NCBI GenBank assembly: GCA_051953735.1
Contig: JBQCIM010000117.1
Coordinates: 18,319-82,318 of the forward strand
Origin: Ginsengibacter sp.
GTDB lineage: Bacteria > Bacteroidota > Bacteroidia > Chitinophagales > Chitinophagaceae
Length of the DNA stretch: 64,000 bases
Reading direction: 5' to 3'
The notes below the pieces were generated by a model. That model had not been told where the DNA came from. It saw only the letters and a program-made list of their open reading frames with translations, and did no database searches. Shown here piece by piece: positions 38,370 through 45,222 of the stretch; within the stretch, counting starts at the first letter, position 1; every line of letters starts with the position of its first letter. The position numbers were made by a program, and so were the translations under genes.

Positions 38370-38801
38370 TTATCCCATTAGATACGCCAAACCATGGCTC
38401 ACAGGTTCGCATAAATTCTGAACATTTTTTTCGCGGAACAATTTTTCCATCAAATCGCGCACCTGTTTGTAATCATTATGAATCGGGCAAGGATGCGATG
38501 AGGAACATTTGCTTAATCCTAAACCACAGCTGGTAAAAAATTGTTTTCCATCTATGGCTTCTACAATATTGATGATCGGCTGTTTCTGTTGTGCTTTTGA
38601 AATGAAGAACCCGCCTGTCGGTCCTTTCATGCTATTGATCACGTTTTGTTTTGCAAGTGTTTGCAAAATTTTTCCAACCGTATGTTCGCTCGCGTCAATA
38701 AATTCAGCGATCTCTTTAATACCGGCGTTTTCGCCACTTTCAAATTTTGAGCAGAGATAAATGACGGCTTTTATCGCGATTTTGCAAGTCTTGCTTAGCA
38801 T
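38370..38801 (-). CDS. Rrf2 family Fe-S transcriptional regulator
   Basis: wHTH, KGPTGGF, C-x6-C-x5-C-x2-H cluster-ligand pattern. Confidence 0.93.
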   Translation of the reverse strand: MLSKTCKIAIKAVIYLCSKFESGENAGIKEIAEFIDASEHTVGKILQTLAKQNVINSMKGPTGGFFISKAQQKQPIINIVEAIDGKQFFTSCGLGLSKCSSSHPCPIHNDYKQVRDLMEKLFREKNVQNLCEPVSHGLAYLMG

Positions 38802-38803
38802 AA

Positions 38804-39127
38804 TTACATGTTTAAAAATTCGCGTCCTTCATCTGATATCTTAGAAGAATTCCATGGCGGATCAAAAGTAATTTTTGTCTCAACGTGATAATCTGTAAAT
38901 GTTTGCTGAAGCGCGTTCGTAACGCCATCATTTATAGTTTCGCCCATGGGGCAAAATTGCGTCGTCAATGAATGCGTACAAAATATTTTTTTTTGATCTT
39001 CATCAAAATCAATCTGGTAGATCAATCCAAGATCTACAACATTCAATCCGATTTCCGGGTCGTCTACAAATTTTAATGCGCCCAACGCAAGTTCGCATTT
39101 TGCTTTATCGTTGGTTATTTCATTCAT
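38804..39127 (-). CDS. DUF59/SufT-like metal-sulfur cluster assembly factor
   Basis: DPEIGLNVVDLGLIY, TTQFCP, FDPPW. Confidence 0.92.
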   Translation of the reverse strand: MNEITNDKAKCELALGALKFVDDPEIGLNVVDLGLIYQIDFDEDQKKIFCTHSLTTQFCPMGETINDGVTNALQQTFTDYHVETKITFDPPWNSSKISDEGREFLNM

Positions 39128-40413
39128 GATTTTTTCGGTTTATGAGTTACAGCTTTCCATACATTTCCATTGTATAAAATCGCCGCTATCAACAAAAGCA
39201 TTGCAGCAATTTTCAAAATTATTTGATTGAAAACAAGCACTCCCACAACAAATAAAACAAATCCAATCAGATAAGAAATTCCCATCATCAAAAATATTTT
39301 ATCATTAAATAATTCTTTGGGATTCGGTGTTTTTCCTATTCCTGCTTTTGAATGATACACTTTGTTCCAAACAATAAAAGGTAATGTTTTGAAGGTCATT
39401 CCAAAAATGATCGCAGTGATCCATCCAAAAAAAATGCAAAATCCATAAGTTAATATTAGATGCACATTATTTTCAGAAAGCAATAACAATACAATAACGA
39501 TCAATAAAAAAATCAATGGAAGCGACATCATAAAAACGGAAAGCAAAGAAATTTTTACAGGATAATCTACTTTTTTACGAATTCTTTCGTAGTAACTTTT
39601 ATAACAATAATATCCAAACAGAATTAATGCTGTGGCAATCGCAATCAATGGAATAAAATAAAGAGCTATAATTTTAAAATACAGAAAGAAAATAATAAAA
39701 CTGATCAAAGCAAAATTGATGAGCGAATAGACCCACCAAAGCAATTTATTGTTACTGTATTTTGAAATTAAAAACATCGGAATCAATCTTGAACCAACTC
39801 CAATTACCAACAATAAAAACCATCCGATAATTCCGAGATGCGCATGAAGCGGAAGATAACTGAGTGAATCGCGCGACAAAATATTGTAGGTAAAATTATA
39901 GACCAAAAACAATCCAACAATTGTAGTTATGATCAACCACAGGGTTGCTGTAAAAACAAAAACAGCATGCACATTTTCTTTCTTGCTTTTTGCCATGCTA
40001 ACGCCAATATTGATCAGATAAAACGCAATGGCAGAGTTGATCAAAATGGCGCCGAACTGAGTCGGCCAGCCAAAATCAAATTCATAAAGTCCCACGACAA
40101 GAAAAGGGATTCCAACACCGGCGCAAAAAAATGAAAGATAGGCAAGCGCGTTACTGTATAATTTTCCTTCGATCAAAACCGGCACCAGCTGATGACTCGC
40201 GCCAAGAATCATCATCGTTCCCCAGCCAAGCGCCATCACATGTGTGATTGCCAAAGTATGCGGATGAAAATAATGTTGCAAAAAAGCAGGAGTAGAAAAA
40301 ACGAGTAAAATTGTGGCAATAAAAAATGCAATTCCCGCGTATAAATAAAATGGCAACACTACTTTGTAAGAAGTATTTTTTGTAAGGCCGGTATTACTAT
40401 TCCCTGGAAGCAT
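39124..40413 (-). CDS. Polytopic membrane protein with conserved His residues (heme-copper oxidase subunit I-like or NnrS-like; function unknown)
   Basis: About 12 TM segments; THVMALGW, SHQLVPV, HAHLGIIGW, QL/RLIPMF repeats. Confidence 0.75.
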   Translation of the reverse strand: MLPGNSNTGLTKNTSYKVVLPFYLYAGIAFFIATILLVFSTPAFLQHYFHPHTLAITHVMALGWGTMMILGASHQLVPVLIEGKLYSNALAYLSFFCAGVGIPFLVVGLYEFDFGWPTQFGAILINSAIAFYLINIGVSMAKSKKENVHAVFVFTATLWLIITTIVGLFLVYNFTYNILSRDSLSYLPLHAHLGIIGWFLLLVIGVGSRLIPMFLISKYSNNKLLWWVYSLINFALISFIIFFLYFKIIALYFIPLIAIATALILFGYYCYKSYYERIRKKVDYPVKISLLSVFMMSLPLIFLLIVIVLLLLSENNVHLILTYGFCIFFGWITAIIFGMTFKTLPFIVWNKVYHSKAGIGKTPNPKELFNDKIFLMMGISYLIGFVLFVVGVLVFNQIILKIAAMLLLIAAILYNGNVWKAVTHKPKKS

Positions 40414-40414
40414 T

Positions 40415-41221
40415 TTAATCTTTAAAAATCAAAAGGCGCACTTCATTCGGCGCAATTTCTTTGATACGATAATCAAATTTTCTTTCTTTCAATTCAGGCA
40501 ATAAAAAAACAGGAATTCTTTTGTGATACACAAACAAGGCTTTGTCTTCCGGCAATTTTTCTATTTCGGAAAGAATCGTCATCATTGGTTGTGGCATTTC
40601 TAAATGGCGCACATCAACGATTTCGGTTTTTCCTTCAAACTTTTTGATCAGTTCATCCCAACCTTCAGAATTATTTTCCTGCCGGGTCACTTCAATCGGC
40701 ACTTCACTTTTTTTGTAAAAATAAGTTTCTATTGTTTGATCGTCCAGTTTGTCAACAAAGGAATCAAAGCCTTGTTTTTTCAATAAAGAAATTAACGGAG
40801 TCGGTTCAAAAGAATTGATGATTTTTAATGCGCTATTCGGCGAAATTGATTTTACTTTTTTGACGATCAAAGAAAGCGGATCATCGCCTGCGTTAATGAT
40901 TGGACGAACATCAAATTCAACAATTTGTTCTGGTTTTAATGAATTAAAAAAAGCAGGCAGTTTTGGTTTTTCAATGTTTGAGTCCGGCACAGTCTCCCTG
41001 TCTGGTTCAAATCCTAAAGGTTGTAATTTTTCAAAAAATTTTTCTACACTTATTCCCGCAATATTGGATGCCATGCCGATGCTGGTGCGTGCTGCCATCA
41101 GTTTTCGCAACAATGGATTTTTCAATTTTTCAAACTTCGGTGTGATGCTGATAATTGCTTCAAGAGCATCAGGATTTTGTTTTAAAATTCTCGAAATTTT
41201 TGTGTTCGCATTTATTGTCAT
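40415..41221 (-). CDS. DUF1858 plus two DUF2249 (TusA/SirA-like) domain protein
   Basis: INANTKIS N-domain; FDVR..DPL..INSFEPTPL; VDVRHLEMPQPM..HKRIPVFL. Confidence 0.82.
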   Translation of the reverse strand: MTINANTKISRILKQNPDALEAIISITPKFEKLKNPLLRKLMAARTSIGMASNIAGISVEKFFEKLQPLGFEPDRETVPDSNIEKPKLPAFFNSLKPEQIVEFDVRPIINAGDDPLSLIVKKVKSISPNSALKIINSFEPTPLISLLKKQGFDSFVDKLDDQTIETYFYKKSEVPIEVTRQENNSEGWDELIKKFEGKTEIVDVRHLEMPQPMMTILSEIEKLPEDKALFVYHKRIPVFLLPELKERKFDYRIKEIAPNEVRLLIFKD

Positions 41222-41346
41222 AAAGGCATTGTTTATTCCAAAAACAGCAGCACAGGCAATCTTACTTTCAGGATTGAAACACCCTAATTTTCAATCAGAC
41301 AACAAGAAAGCCCGGCACCGCGTTTTGGTAATTAAACTCTAGTTTT

Positions 41347-42810
41347 TCAGTTACTTTTTTCCAGATCCAATGCTTTTGGAAACAGAATATTGTTTTCAAG
41401 ATGAACGTGGACATGCAAATCATTTTCAAATTCATCTAAAGTTTTAAACAAGAAAGAATAACTAGCGCATGCATCTTCCGGAAGGTGATAATTGTTGGTT
41501 ATTTTCCTGATCTCGTCCATGTTTCCTCCAACCAGCTCATGTTCCATTTCCATCATGTTGATCGGTGTTTCAACTGTTTGAAGATTTCCAAATTGAACCT
41601 TTCTTTGTCCGTTATTTTTTGCAGCCACCAACTGTTTTACGTAAGGAAATAAAACAGTTTCTTCTTTCACCATATGAGAAGACATTTCGTCGCAAACTTC
41701 CTGCGCAAGCTGGTTAATGCGCAACAATTCCGGGTGATGAGCGCCATGAACTTTGGCAACTTTTCCTGCATAATTTCGTATGTCAATAATTGTTTTCTTT
41801 ACGTAACTGTGGTGTGTGTTCACAATATAATCAGCAAGAAAATCAAGATTCCAGTCGTTGTAGGGCAGCGGTTTTGCAGTAAACGAACTTTTATCGCTGT
41901 TTTGTAATTCCTGCTCAACCTTCGTTACATCAATTCCTTTTTCTGCGCACGCTTCTTTCACAGTTTTCTTTCCTCCGCAACAAAAATCCAAGCCGTATTT
42001 TTTAAACACTTCTGCTTTGCGTAAATCTTTTGCAGCAATTTCTCCAAGCGTTTCGTCTGCTTCACCTTCTGTACGCTTTAAGATTTTTACACGCCATATT
42101 TTCGGACCTTGTTCCAAATATTCCCAGGTAAAAATATTTCCTCTTTCTCCGAGCAATTGGTAATACAAAGGTTTAGGATCGTGATCATTATGAATGGTCA
42201 AACTTTCGCCAGGTTTTAATTCATCAAACTTTACAAAAATGGTTGGATGTTTTAATTTAGGCTCGATTGCTGTAACGTTTAAAATGTTTTCAGAAGATCT
42301 TGCTTCTTCGGGTTCAGCATTTGCTAATTTATTTTTAGTAATTTTTATTCTGAATAATTCCGGACCTTGTTCCAGGTATTCCCATTGAAAAATATTTCCT
42401 TTTAGATTTTCCAGTTGAAAACGAAGCGGGCGCGGATCATGATCATTGTGCAAAACGAAGTTTTCGCCGGGTTTCAGCGAATCAAAGCGGTTAAAAATAG
42501 TAGCATGCTTTACTGATGGATGTAATAAAGTAGCATCCAAAATATTCTCATCTTCTTCAGACGTTTTTTTATTTTTTGTGATTTTTACTTTCCACGTTTC
42601 TGGCCCTTGCTCCAAATATTGCCATGAAAAAATATCGCCTCTTTCAGCAGATAATTCATAATAAAGCGGCTTTGGATCATGATCATTATGAAGAATGAGG
42701 CTTTCGCCTGAAATTAATTCATCAAATCTTTCAAAGATGGTTGGATGTTTCAATTTTGGCTCTATTAAACTTACATTGAGAATATTTTCATTCTCTAAAG
42801 CTGTATTCAT
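41347..42810 (-). CDS. ric: Iron-sulfur cluster repair di-iron protein (RIC) with three N-terminal DUF2249 domains
   Basis: Three copies of ENIL...HNDHDP.PL...YLEQGP; GLDFCCGG (ScdA_N); hemerythrin ligands HH, HMVKEE, EHE, HVHLENNILFP. Confidence 0.92.
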   Translation of the reverse strand: MNTALENENILNVSLIEPKLKHPTIFERFDELISGESLILHNDHDPKPLYYELSAERGDIFSWQYLEQGPETWKVKITKNKKTSEEDENILDATLLHPSVKHATIFNRFDSLKPGENFVLHNDHDPRPLRFQLENLKGNIFQWEYLEQGPELFRIKITKNKLANAEPEEARSSENILNVTAIEPKLKHPTIFVKFDELKPGESLTIHNDHDPKPLYYQLLGERGNIFTWEYLEQGPKIWRVKILKRTEGEADETLGEIAAKDLRKAEVFKKYGLDFCCGGKKTVKEACAEKGIDVTKVEQELQNSDKSSFTAKPLPYNDWNLDFLADYIVNTHHSYVKKTIIDIRNYAGKVAKVHGAHHPELLRINQLAQEVCDEMSSHMVKEETVLFPYVKQLVAAKNNGQRKVQFGNLQTVETPINMMEMEHELVGGNMDEIRKITNNYHLPEDACASYSFLFKTLDEFENDLHVHVHLENNILFPKALDLEKSN

Positions 42811-42863
42811 TAGTGTAATGTTTTATAAATAATAATTGAAAACAAAGATAACAAAGGTGACCA

Positions 42864-42889
42864 AATAAAAGTATTTCTATACTTTTATT
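42864..42889. promoter_or_regulatory. Candidate Rrf2 operator: inverted repeat AATAAAAGTAT-ttct-ATACTTTTATT
   Basis: Perfect 11-bp arms just upstream of the minus-strand -7 box TATCTTTG (42850-42843) of ric. Confidence 0.7.
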
Positions 42890-42955: not shown

Positions 42956-44176
42956 TCAGAAAATAAACCCGATGATGAGACACCCCAAAACAATAAACGG
43001 AGCAGGAATTTTTGTGAAAGTAAGAAGATAAAAAGTACCGATGATAACAACGATATTTACAACACTAACAGTGTTTAAAGCTGTGATTGAAATATCTTTT
43101 ACAAGATAAAGAAAAGATGCCCACATAATTCCCACGACGACTGCATTAATTCCTTCCAGCGAGCGATAAACGACTACATATTTTTTTAAAATTTGCCAAA
43201 CAGGAAAAAAGAATAAAACCAGCAAAGCGCTTGGCAAAAAAATGCCGATACAACCAATAAGACATCCTAATATTTGCCACGTCGGACCGTAATCACGAAG
43301 CACCATTCCACCCACATAAGAGGTAACCGAAAACACCGGACCGGGAATCGCGCGAACAATTCCCCAACCAGTTAAATATTCTTCTTTGGTCAAATAATTT
43401 GATTTCTCGCGGGTAACATATTGTTCATACATCATGGGCATCAACACATCGCCTCCGCCGAAAACGAGACTTCCATAACGGTACACATTTTCTGAAAGAT
43501 TGAAAGCTCTTTTGTGTTCCCAGTTTTGTTTTCTTGCTGTTTCACTCAAAAAGCCTACGACAATGAAAATCAAAATGAATAGCCAAATGTTTGTCCATTT
43601 TATATGGCGCGGTTTGACATTGTCCTTTTGAGGATATCTTCTGTCACTGAAGTTGGTGACCACTCCTCCCAAAACGATCAGTATTGGAAAGACCCATGGA
43701 GTTTTAAAAAAAAGATAGGTACCGATGGCGCCTACGATCATAATAATAAAGGTGATCTTATTTTTAATAGAAACTTTATACATTCTGAAAGCAGCGAATG
43801 CGATAAAGCCAACAGCCATTGGCTGAATATAAGAAAAAAGATCAAGGCTTACATGATAGGTGTTGACATAATAAAACAGAAAAGAAAAAATTCCCATCAA
43901 AATACTGGCAGGAAAAATCCAAATCAAAAGAGTAAGAATAGCAAGAGGAACGCCGCCGCGTTTATAACCAATCAGCGTTATGGTTTGCGTGGAAGACGCG
44001 CCAGGCAAGAGTTGACAAAATGCGACGTATTCCATCAATTCTTCTTTCGTTACATCCCTTCGTCCTTCTACAAATGTTTTCATCATCATTCCCAAATGAC
44101 CTTGCGGGCCGCCGAAGGCGGAAATAGTATAATAAAAAACCGCTTTTAAAAAAGGAATGTGCCTGTGCAGTACCAT
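42956..44176 (-). CDS. chrA: Long-chain chromate transporter (CHR family)
   Basis: Two CHR halves: [10 protein letters not shown]...QLLPGASS and FGGGDVL...RAIPGP. Confidence 0.92.
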
Positions 44177-44277: not shown

Positions 44278-45222
44278 TTATTTCTTCAAACCAATCTCTC
44301 TCAAACGCTCATCAAGGTATTCTCCTGCCGTGATGTTTTCATAGACCTTCGGATGATTTTCATCCACGCATTCCTCAAGAGCAGAAAGATCCATTGCAGA
44401 TTTTGGATGAAGAAAAAACGGAATCGAAAATCTTGATGTATGCCACAATTCACGCGGAGGATTTACGACTCTGTGCGTTGTGCTTTTTAATTTATTGTTA
44501 GTAAGTCGTTGCAGCATATCACCAACATTCACCACGATCTGATCAGGTAAAGAAGTGACGCCGATCCATTCATTTTGTTTCGTCAGAATTTCCAAACCAC
44601 CAGCTGATGCGCCTACCAATAAAGTGATCAGGTTAATATCTTCATGTTGTTCTGCACGAATGGCGCTTTGGGGCTCAACGGTTATTGGTGGATAATGAAT
44701 GGCGCGAACAATTGAATTTCCTTCTTCCACAAAATCGTCAAAATAATTTTCATCCAAGCCAAGATAAAGCGCAATCGCCTGCAGCAAAGATTTTCCCGAT
44801 TTTTCAAAAGCACGATAAGCTTTGAAAAGCGTTTCATTAAATCCTTCAACTTCCGCTACACTTACATTATCGGGATATTCAGCCTTCAATGGATGATTTG
44901 CAGGAACAGTTTGTCCGTATTGAAAAAACTCTTTCAGGTCGGGCGCATCACTTCCCTTTGCATGTTCTTTTCCAAAAGAAGTATAACCCCTTTGTCCGGC
45001 AAGTTCCGGAATTTCATAAGCGCGTTTTTTATCAGAAGGAAGAGAAAAAAATTGCTGCACATATTTATAAAGATCCGCGATAAGATGTGCAGGAATTCCA
45101 TGATTTTTCACGGCCACAAAACCGACGTCTTCATACGCTTTTCCCAACCGCTGAACGAAAGATTCTTTTAGCTTTGGATCGCCGCCGGTAAAGTCCGAAA
45201 GATCAACTACTGGTATGGTCAT
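44278..45222 (-). CDS. 2-oxoglutarate/Fe(II) dioxygenase (isopenicillin N synthase family)
   Basis: IPVVDL DIOX_N domain, HEDINLIT (HxD), STTHRV, RFSIPFF. Confidence 0.92.
   Translation of the reverse strand: MTIPVVDLSDFTGGDPKLKESFVQRLGKAYEDVGFVAVKNHGIPAHLIADLYKYVQQFFSLPSDKKRAYEIPELAGQRGYTSFGKEHAKGSDAPDLKEFFQYGQTVPANHPLKAEYPDNVSVAEVEGFNETLFKAYRAFEKSGKSLLQAIALYLGLDENYFDDFVEEGNSIVRAIHYPPITVEPQSAIRAEQHEDINLITLLVGASAGGLEILTKQNEWIGVTSLPDQIVVNVGDMLQRLTNNKLKSTTHRVVNPPRELWHTSRFSIPFFLHPKSAMDLSALEECVDENHPKVYENITAGEYLDERLREIGLKK

Follow-up and report, generated by a model that had tools for sequence, protein, structure and literature searches.

The question raised by a stretch of 64,000 nucleotides from Ginsengibacter sp. 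(assembly GCA_051953735.1, contig JBQCIM010000117.1, positions 18,319 to 82,318; in the following termed the window) is what purpose is served by a cluster of five genes, g1 to g5, in which a RIC/YtfE-type protein is encoded together with DUF2249 and DUF59 proteins, a membrane protein, and a regulator of the Rrf2 family. The original prediction had described this cluster as a candidate membrane-coupled system for the repair of iron-sulfur (Fe-S) centers or for nitric oxide (NO) stress, and by inference had postulated a relay of iron, sulfur, heme, or electrons between the membrane and the RIC/SufT machinery. The analyses reported here point to an autoregulated stress operon that responds to NO or another Fe-S-damaging agent, a reading to which we assign a probability of roughly 0.6. 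The locus comprises the following features:

41347-42810, minus strand: g1, 487 amino acids (aa); three DUF2249 domains plus ScdA_N and Hemerythrin domains (Pfam)
40415-41221, minus strand: g2, 268 aa; DUF1858 plus two DUF2249 domains (Pfam), the architecture of Thermus DrpB
39124-40413, minus strand: g3, 429 aa; membrane protein of 12 transmembrane helices with the fold of heme-copper oxidase subunit I; no Pfam match
38804-39127, minus strand: g4, 107 aa; DUF59/FeS_assembly_P domain (Pfam)
38370-38801, minus strand: g5, 143 aa; Rrf2-family regulator (Pfam)
42864-42889, no strand: presumed operator, a perfect 11-4-11 palindrome, AATAAAAGTAT-N4-ATACTTTTATT
42843-42850, minus strand: putative Bacteroidota-type -7 box TATCTTTG (TAnnTTTG), 16 nucleotides (nt) downstream of the operator core
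41222-41346, minus strand: spacer between g1 and g2, 125 nt

The coordinates of the open reading frames (ORFs) confirm that all five genes are co-oriented and that the last four are as tightly packed as had been claimed: 1 nt lies between the stop codon of g2 and the start codon of g3, g3 shares 4 nt (ATGA) with g4, and 2 nt separate g4 from g5. Neither a TAnnTTTG box nor a terminator-like site was found in the spacer between g1 and g2. The hairpin located 3' of g5 was no better than those of shuffled sequences (z -1.17), which leaves the 3' end of the operon undefined. Every domain assignment made originally (RIC, DUF1858/DUF2249, DUF59, and Rrf2) was recovered with Pfam, including the five DUF2249 domains distributed over two proteins, with three in g1 and two in g2; a search of the 4.2-Mb assembly found these five to be the only DUF2249 domains encoded in the genome. 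Judged from this layout and from its recurrence in related genomes, the five genes form one operon that is conserved across the Bacteroidota.

This recurrence was assessed by a search of species-representative genomes with a 15-sequence alignment of g3, which retrieved 525 relatives, and the loci of the best 80 were examined. These 80 all belong to the Bacteroidota and were found in Chitinophagaceae, Sphingobacteriales, Mucilaginibacter, and Flavobacteriaceae. In 74 of these loci, g3, g4, and g5 directly follow one another, and 71 of the 80 have a co-oriented DUF2249-RIC gene upstream; most of the exceptions are contig ends. An even sample of 201 Bacteroidota genomes contained 11 with a full-length g3 orthologue; DUF2249 domains are encoded next to g3 in all 11 of these, compared to 12 of the 190 other genomes for DUF2249 domains. 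As the original prediction required, the genes thus co-occur beyond the window. Between g1 and g2, most relatives hold one to three further genes, which code for a lipoprotein of 149 aa that belongs to no Pfam family, a hemerythrin of 160 aa, and an NADH dehydrogenase of type II (NDH-2). The latter (444-462 aa) occurs at this position in five loci (L008, L034, L036, L038, and L061), several of which also contain the genes of the hemerythrin and the lipoprotein. All three genes are absent from the window, and judging by the relatives its lineage has lost them. Three loci (L045, 7377-8591; L074, 14191-15273; L078, 8883-10095) additionally contain, a few kilobases downstream of the module, a second and more distant Rrf2 gene (32-33% identity to g5) that is directly followed by a second, plain RIC gene (29-39%).

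The locus also contains a sharply conserved non-coding element. As the original prediction had stated, a single promoter carrying a palindrome precedes the operon; 100 shuffles of the window yielded no match to this palindrome, which is the presumed binding site of a repressor encoded by g5. The palindrome was recovered in 62 of 66 related loci with the consensus AATAAAAGTATTTAAATACTTTTATT, its distance to the g1 start downstream being 60-82 nt and in rare cases as much as 120 nt. In 41 of 60 sites the operator core is followed after 13-17 nt (mode 16) by a TAnnTTTG box, which we take to be the Bacteroidota -7 consensus. Owing to this spacing the operator covers the -33 region, as is expected for the site of a repressor. 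Operator and regulator also vary together: in 61 loci the flanking sequence sufficed to score both; 57 of these contain both, and the two in which no g5 is adjacent are without the operator as well (Fisher p 0.003). When the genome was scanned with a position weight matrix, the site upstream of g1 ranked first (36.0 bits; shuffle maximum 12.7). One second site (27.5 bits; contig C83:140892-140917) precedes by 42 nt a cupin-like ORF of 103 aa (C83:140959-141270; Cupin_2 25.7 bits, just under the cut-off), and no third site in the genome exceeded the shuffle maximum. By virtue of this site, the cupin-like gene is a possible second member of the regulon. With up to two mismatches allowed, the operator pattern was no more frequent in 11 genomes than a reversed-pattern control, which gives no indication of a regulon wider than the cupin-like gene of this genome. 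A 110-aa cupin gene is found within the operon itself in locus L085.

The product of g5 is an Rrf2 protein (PF02082, 81.5 bits; gathering cut-off 30) and one of three such proteins that the Pfam model detects in the genome. Across 75 orthologues, its residues C6, C92, C99, C105, and H108 do not vary, in agreement with the Cys-ligated Rrf2 regulator that had been proposed. A second pair of DUF59 and Rrf2 genes forms the tail of the suf operon (contig C147:855-3402), whose order SufS-SufE-DUF59-Rrf2 is mirrored by g4-g5; the respective proteins are 27% (DUF59) and 23% (Rrf2) identical. Because the suf operon possesses its own Rrf2 paralogue, g5 can be regarded as a dedicated local regulator and not as the general regulator of Fe-S metabolism. 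The tail of the module may be derived from a duplicated suf tail.

Among the effector genes, g1 supplies a protein of the RIC/YtfE family. This family comprises established repair and iron-donor proteins for damaged Fe-S centers, whose mode of action in the cell is still debated. The C-terminal 235 residues of g1 represent a complete RIC protein (TIGR03652 equivalog, 239.6 bits; cut-off 204.7). Residues 252-482 align end to end with E. coli YtfE (5fnn), and the di-iron positions H, H, H..E, H, and H..E, seven His/Glu ligands according to what we take to be the ligand list of YtfE, are identical in both proteins. The N-terminal Cys pair of the ScdA_N domain (CC motif) is present as DFCCGG. While g1 thus shares the di-iron ligands and the CC motif with E. 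coli YtfE and S. aureus ScdA, it differs from both by an additional N-terminal extension of 245 residues, which consists of three DUF2249 repeats with the His-rich signature KHP...HNDHDP...YLEQGP; homologues of g1 have one to three repeats. We infer that these His-rich domains bind metal. The DUF1858 domain of g2 showed no similarity to the ScdA_N domain of g1 in a BLASTP comparison.

The membrane protein g3 had been labeled His-rich. Its membrane location stands, but the label is incomplete, as g3 has the fold of heme-copper oxidase (HCO) subunit I and retains two of the six canonical histidines. The AlphaFold2 (AF2) model, based on a 99-sequence alignment, has a predicted local distance difference test (pLDDT) value of 95.6 and a predicted template-modeling (pTM) value of 0.94, and contains 12 transmembrane helices with the three-fold pseudo-symmetry of the heme-copper oxidases. 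Foldseek returned template-modeling (TM) scores of 0.81 to CcoN of the cbb3 oxidase (8smr_E), 0.79 to 3mk7_A, and 0.68 to NorB, and the profile of the g3 family matches helices 9-12 of CcoN (E 7e-9) with H58 aligned to a heme-ligand histidine. Of the six histidines that ligate two hemes and CuB/FeB in canonical members, g3 keeps two. Only H58 and H190 are invariant, H192 and H47 being conserved in 74 and 63%, respectively; the CuB/FeB histidines, the HH pair, the histidine on helix 10, and the second heme ligand pair are all absent from the family alignment. Since the CuB/FeB histidines are missing, g3 is not an oxidase or an NO reductase (NOR). It has the overall fold in common with CcoN and NorB, but is distinguished from them by the lack of a CuB/FeB site, subunit II, a cytochrome c partner, and a Pfam COX1 match. 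On helices 2 and 6, H58 and H190 are each placed about 7 residues from the outer helix end; at the corresponding position of helix 10, 70% of the members have Tyr, and the inner half contains the nearly invariant polar residues Q75, N135, and K342. No Pfam family, including COX1 (PF00115) and NnrS (PF05940), matched g3 at E <= 0.01, and some of its relatives have weak or faint precomputed COX1 matches only; a search of the genome with NnrS gave no match, but the controls were silent as well.

These features fit a predicted single-heme protein of the "HCO homology" (HCOH) type, in which a single b-type heme is probably held by H58 and H190, close to the outer face of the membrane. Pei, Li, Kinch and Grishin are said to have described in 2014 (Protein Sci 23:1220) three-unit HCOH proteins with a 12-transmembrane oxidase fold, reportedly with two conserved histidines, a predicted single heme, and DUF2249 and hemerythrin genes as neighbors. 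A role of these proteins in NO detoxification or denitrification was reportedly proposed in the same study. A later publication attributes the link between DUF2249 and heme-copper oxidase homologues to Pei et al. 2014 (PMC11218638). As so described, the HCOH proteins resemble g3 in fold, in the two histidines, and in the DUF2249/hemerythrin neighborhood. The original statement that no description of the cluster as a single pathway was known therefore needs to be restricted, as the system is not wholly undescribed.

The product of g4 is a DUF59 protein (PF01883, 34.3 bits; cut-off 23.5) that falls below the SufT equivalog cut-offs. Conservation of its cysteine motif, LTTxFCP, extends over 78 orthologues. 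In five separate 50%-identity clusters the membrane protein and DUF59 are fused end to end, and the AF2 model of one natural HCOH-DUF59 fusion reached a pLDDT of 94.2 and a pTM of 0.84, which are confidence values only. Because such natural fusions exist, the membrane protein and DUF59 are considered tightly coupled, and the linkage of the two that had originally been proposed is borne out; the fusions suggest that both proteins physically work together.

The connection between the membrane protein and DUF2249 extends beyond the Bacteroidota operon, as the core of DUF2249, HCOH, and DUF59 genes was also found, at 24-35% identity, in Ktedonobacterales, Dehalococcoidia, Accumulibacter, and metagenomes. 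In these distant relatives, a single gene for a TusA-like DUF2249 protein lacking the cysteine usually lies directly upstream of the membrane protein gene and overlaps it or nearly does so, whereas DUF59 is encoded directly downstream in two contexts and convergently in a third. The Accumulibacter locus contains a hemerythrin gene, and a regulator gene of the Crp/FNR family is located near the core in four distant loci. An alignment of the DUF2249 domains revealed two types, a His-rich one in g1 and a PPEP/MPQP type elsewhere, to which belong the g2 C-terminal domain and, in the other phyla, the single-domain partner of the membrane protein. As the g2 C-terminus shares its type with this partner, g2 is interpreted as the local form of the ancestral partner protein. 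The catalytic cysteine of TusA (CPxP) is replaced in all of these domains, the aligned positions being KHP in the g1 repeats, MPQP in g2, and PPEP in the distant partners. This lack of the TusA cysteine argues against a sulfur relay, and this component of the postulated relay is accordingly disfavored. A double-length relative of g3 (P0182, 862 aa, with three matched stretches; L089:1808-4396) has two divergent DUF2249 genes and a Crp/FNR regulator gene as neighbors and may represent two oxidase-like units fused in tandem.

Taken together, these data suggest the following working model. A g5 dimer would hold an Fe-S cluster on C92, C99, and C105, with H108 or C6 as a further ligand, and in the cluster-loaded state would bind the 26-bp palindrome over the -33 region of the sole promoter and repress transcription. 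Damage to the cluster by NO or another cluster-destroying agent, the kind of effector we infer for the system, would release the repressor from the DNA, so that all five genes are made. The RIC part of g1 would then repair or re-metallate damaged Fe-S centers, whereas g2, g3, and g4 would constitute a membrane-anchored unit in which the DUF59 protein and g2, with its Cys-less TusA-like DUF2249 domain, dock on the inner face of g3. This unit would act in an NnrS-like manner by protecting or servicing iron centers under stress, and might feed electrons or iron to RIC and DUF59. Such a protective activity is favored on the basis of the NnrS analogy and the associations with NDH-2, hemerythrin, and DUF59.

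The closest known system is the NsrR regulon of proteobacteria, in which NsrR co-controls dnrN/ytfE (RIC) and nnrS (Rodionov et al. 2005, PMC1274295), and the closest known parts are the HCOH proteins, DrpA/DrpB of Thermus, and YtfE. The common features include a Cys-ligated repressor of the Rrf2 family, an AT-rich operator that is palindromic and has half-sites of the GTAT/ATAC type (AAGTAT in the operator described here resembles the NsrR half-site ATGyAT; PMC1274295), and the placement of a RIC gene and a heme-copper-oxidase-related membrane protein under one NO-related control. In contrast to the NsrR regulons, the genes studied here form a single operon that includes the regulator, g3 lacks a Pfam match to NnrS, DUF2249, DUF1858, and DUF59 partners have been added, and the RIC protein carries three extra domains.

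Several observations weigh against the proposed NO- or damage-responsive operon. By the curated cut-offs, the regulator is orthologous neither to NsrR (NF008240; 30.3 bits, cut-off 182) nor to IscR (TIGR02010; 47.7 bits, cut-off 207.55); it also remained below that of the SUF regulator, its best partial match (60.8 bits, cut-off 110.65). Its pattern C-x6-C-x5-C-x2-H is nearer to IscR than to NsrR, and the operator spacing is N4 instead of the N5 of NsrR sites. In the sample of 201 Bacteroidota genomes, nirK was present in 1 of the 11 module-bearing genomes as compared with 27 of the 190 others; a role in coping with endogenously produced NO is therefore not general, and the five-gene module in Bacteroidota is not a denitrification accessory. 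Furthermore, heme binding by g3 and the formation of a g2-g3-g4 complex are predictions, and a simple electron relay sits uneasily with a heme that is predicted close to the outer face and hence far away from the partners in the cytoplasm.

The alternative that best survives these considerations, albeit as an improbable one, is Fe-S homeostasis. Here, g5 would sense cluster occupancy in the manner of IscR or SufR, and the operon would be a back-up branch of cluster maturation or iron delivery under iron limitation or oxidative stress. The IscR-like ligand pattern of g5, the SUF regulator as its best partial match in NCBIfam, the resemblance of the DUF59-Rrf2 tail to that of the genome's suf operon, and the independence of the module from nirK are all consistent with this explanation. 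It is countered by the presence of a separate Rrf2 paralogue in suf that shares only 23% identity with g5, by the genome-wide matrix scan, which found no copy of the operator near suf, by the fact that RIC and oxidase-like membrane proteins are typical of NO regulons (PMC1274295), and by the frequent proximity of a Crp/FNR-type regulator gene to the core in other phyla.

Within the preferred reading of a stress operon, a more far-reaching and rather speculative proposal is that a service complex of the DrpB-like g2, g3, and DUF59 links the quinone pool, or a source of iron or heme in the membrane, to RIC and thereby represents the missing partner or reductant of RIC/YtfE. The quinone pool is considered because NDH-2 is encoded in the operons of relatives. 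If this holds true, the service complex would join Hmp/NOR and NnrS as a third widespread system against nitrosative stress.

A quite unlikely explanation is signal transduction as known from DrpA and DrpB of Thermus thermophilus (Chahlafi et al. 2018, PMC6282519), whereby the membrane protein and the DUF2249 proteins would serve as sensors of nitrate, nitrite, or oxygen that regulate other genes, without any repair function. DrpB of this organism consists of DUF1858 and two DUF2249 domains, the Pfam architecture also seen in g2, which qualifies the original description of the DUF2249 domains as uncharacterised. The His-rich repeats of g1 in turn resemble the His-bearing single-domain type of DrpA. 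In Thermus, drpAB is located downstream of nar and controlled by DnrT, DrpB is membrane-associated, and mutants in DrpA/DrpB show altered expression of nar and dnr, which would agree with a signaling function (PMC6282519). The double mutant, in contrast, contains normal levels of nitrate reductase protein with little activity (PMC6282519), a phenotype that fits maturation and, in favor of the preferred stress operon, hints at a role in the maturation of cofactors. Moreover, the nar, nir, and nor genes are not linked to the module in Bacteroidota, and the operon has its own DNA-binding regulator and enzymes (RIC and DUF59). Neither an oxidase-like protein nor DUF59, RIC, or Rrf2 was reported for the Thermus drpAB locus (PMC6282519).

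The genome to which the window belongs encodes a copper nitrite reductase, nirK (contig C52:4338-5219), and a clade II nitrous oxide reductase, nosZ (C73:10952-12763). The only PF00115 matches in this genome are two A-type oxidases with the motif GHPEVY (contigs C93 and C134), so that no NorB-like gene was found, and Hcp was not found either; Hmp and flavodiiron NO reductases were outside this search. The presence of nirK and nosZ without a NorB-like gene or Hcp raised the idea of a cryptic NO reductase. The least probable explanation of all, namely that the oxidase-fold g3 and the di-iron RIC protein reduce NO to N2O and fill this gap, possibly with quinol fed by the NDH-2 of relatives' operons, is contradicted by g3 itself, in which all three CuB/FeB histidines are missing along with the second pair of heme ligands, and by the absence of nirK from 10 of the 11 module-bearing genomes, and the gap itself may be apparent only, given the scope of the search. 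The "missing NO reductase" was rejected as a candidate function, since a phyletic association with nirK (1 of 11 versus 27 of 190 genomes) is unsupported. Separately, ORFs of about 140-150 aa whose match to the g3 profile is confined to its middle four-helix unit were detected in five genomes of the sample (G116, C3:31547-42787; G196, C6; G104; G072; and G076). They resemble single-unit oxidase-homology proteins and are located near DUF2249 genes in G116, G196, G104, and G072; in G116 and G196 they also lie near nirK, indicating a denitrification-linked flavor distinct from the Rrf2 module.

To our knowledge, no function of the DUF2249 and oxidase-homology families has been tested at the bench, and we know of no bench study of the operon itself. 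The Bacteroidota version unites RIC, DUF2249, DUF59, and an oxidase-like protein in one transcription unit, together with a repressor of its own whose operator is sharply defined. The literature examined, to which Pei et al. 2014 did not belong, contained neither this arrangement in one operon with its own Rrf2 regulator and sharply conserved operator nor the DUF2249-RIC fusion, the HCOH-DUF59 fusions, or the independence from nirK. The last feature sets the module in Bacteroidota apart from the denitrification-island versions of Thermus and haloarchaea. Cultured strains are among the carriers of the module, such as Hanamia caeni BO-59, Ginsengibacter hankyongi BR5-29, Agriterribacter humi YJ03, and Chitinophaga oryziterrae (loci L012, L018, L037, and L059). 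Since it consists of four effector genes with a single promoter and a single regulator, the module is a compact starting point that lends itself to testing.

Directly upstream of the operon, the minus strand of the window encodes a chromate transporter of the ChrA family and a 2-oxoglutarate-Fe(II) oxygenase (42956-44176 and 44278-45222). A chrA gene adjoins the module also in its closest relative, L021, and in no other locus, and because of this restricted adjacency ChrA probably lies outside the module.

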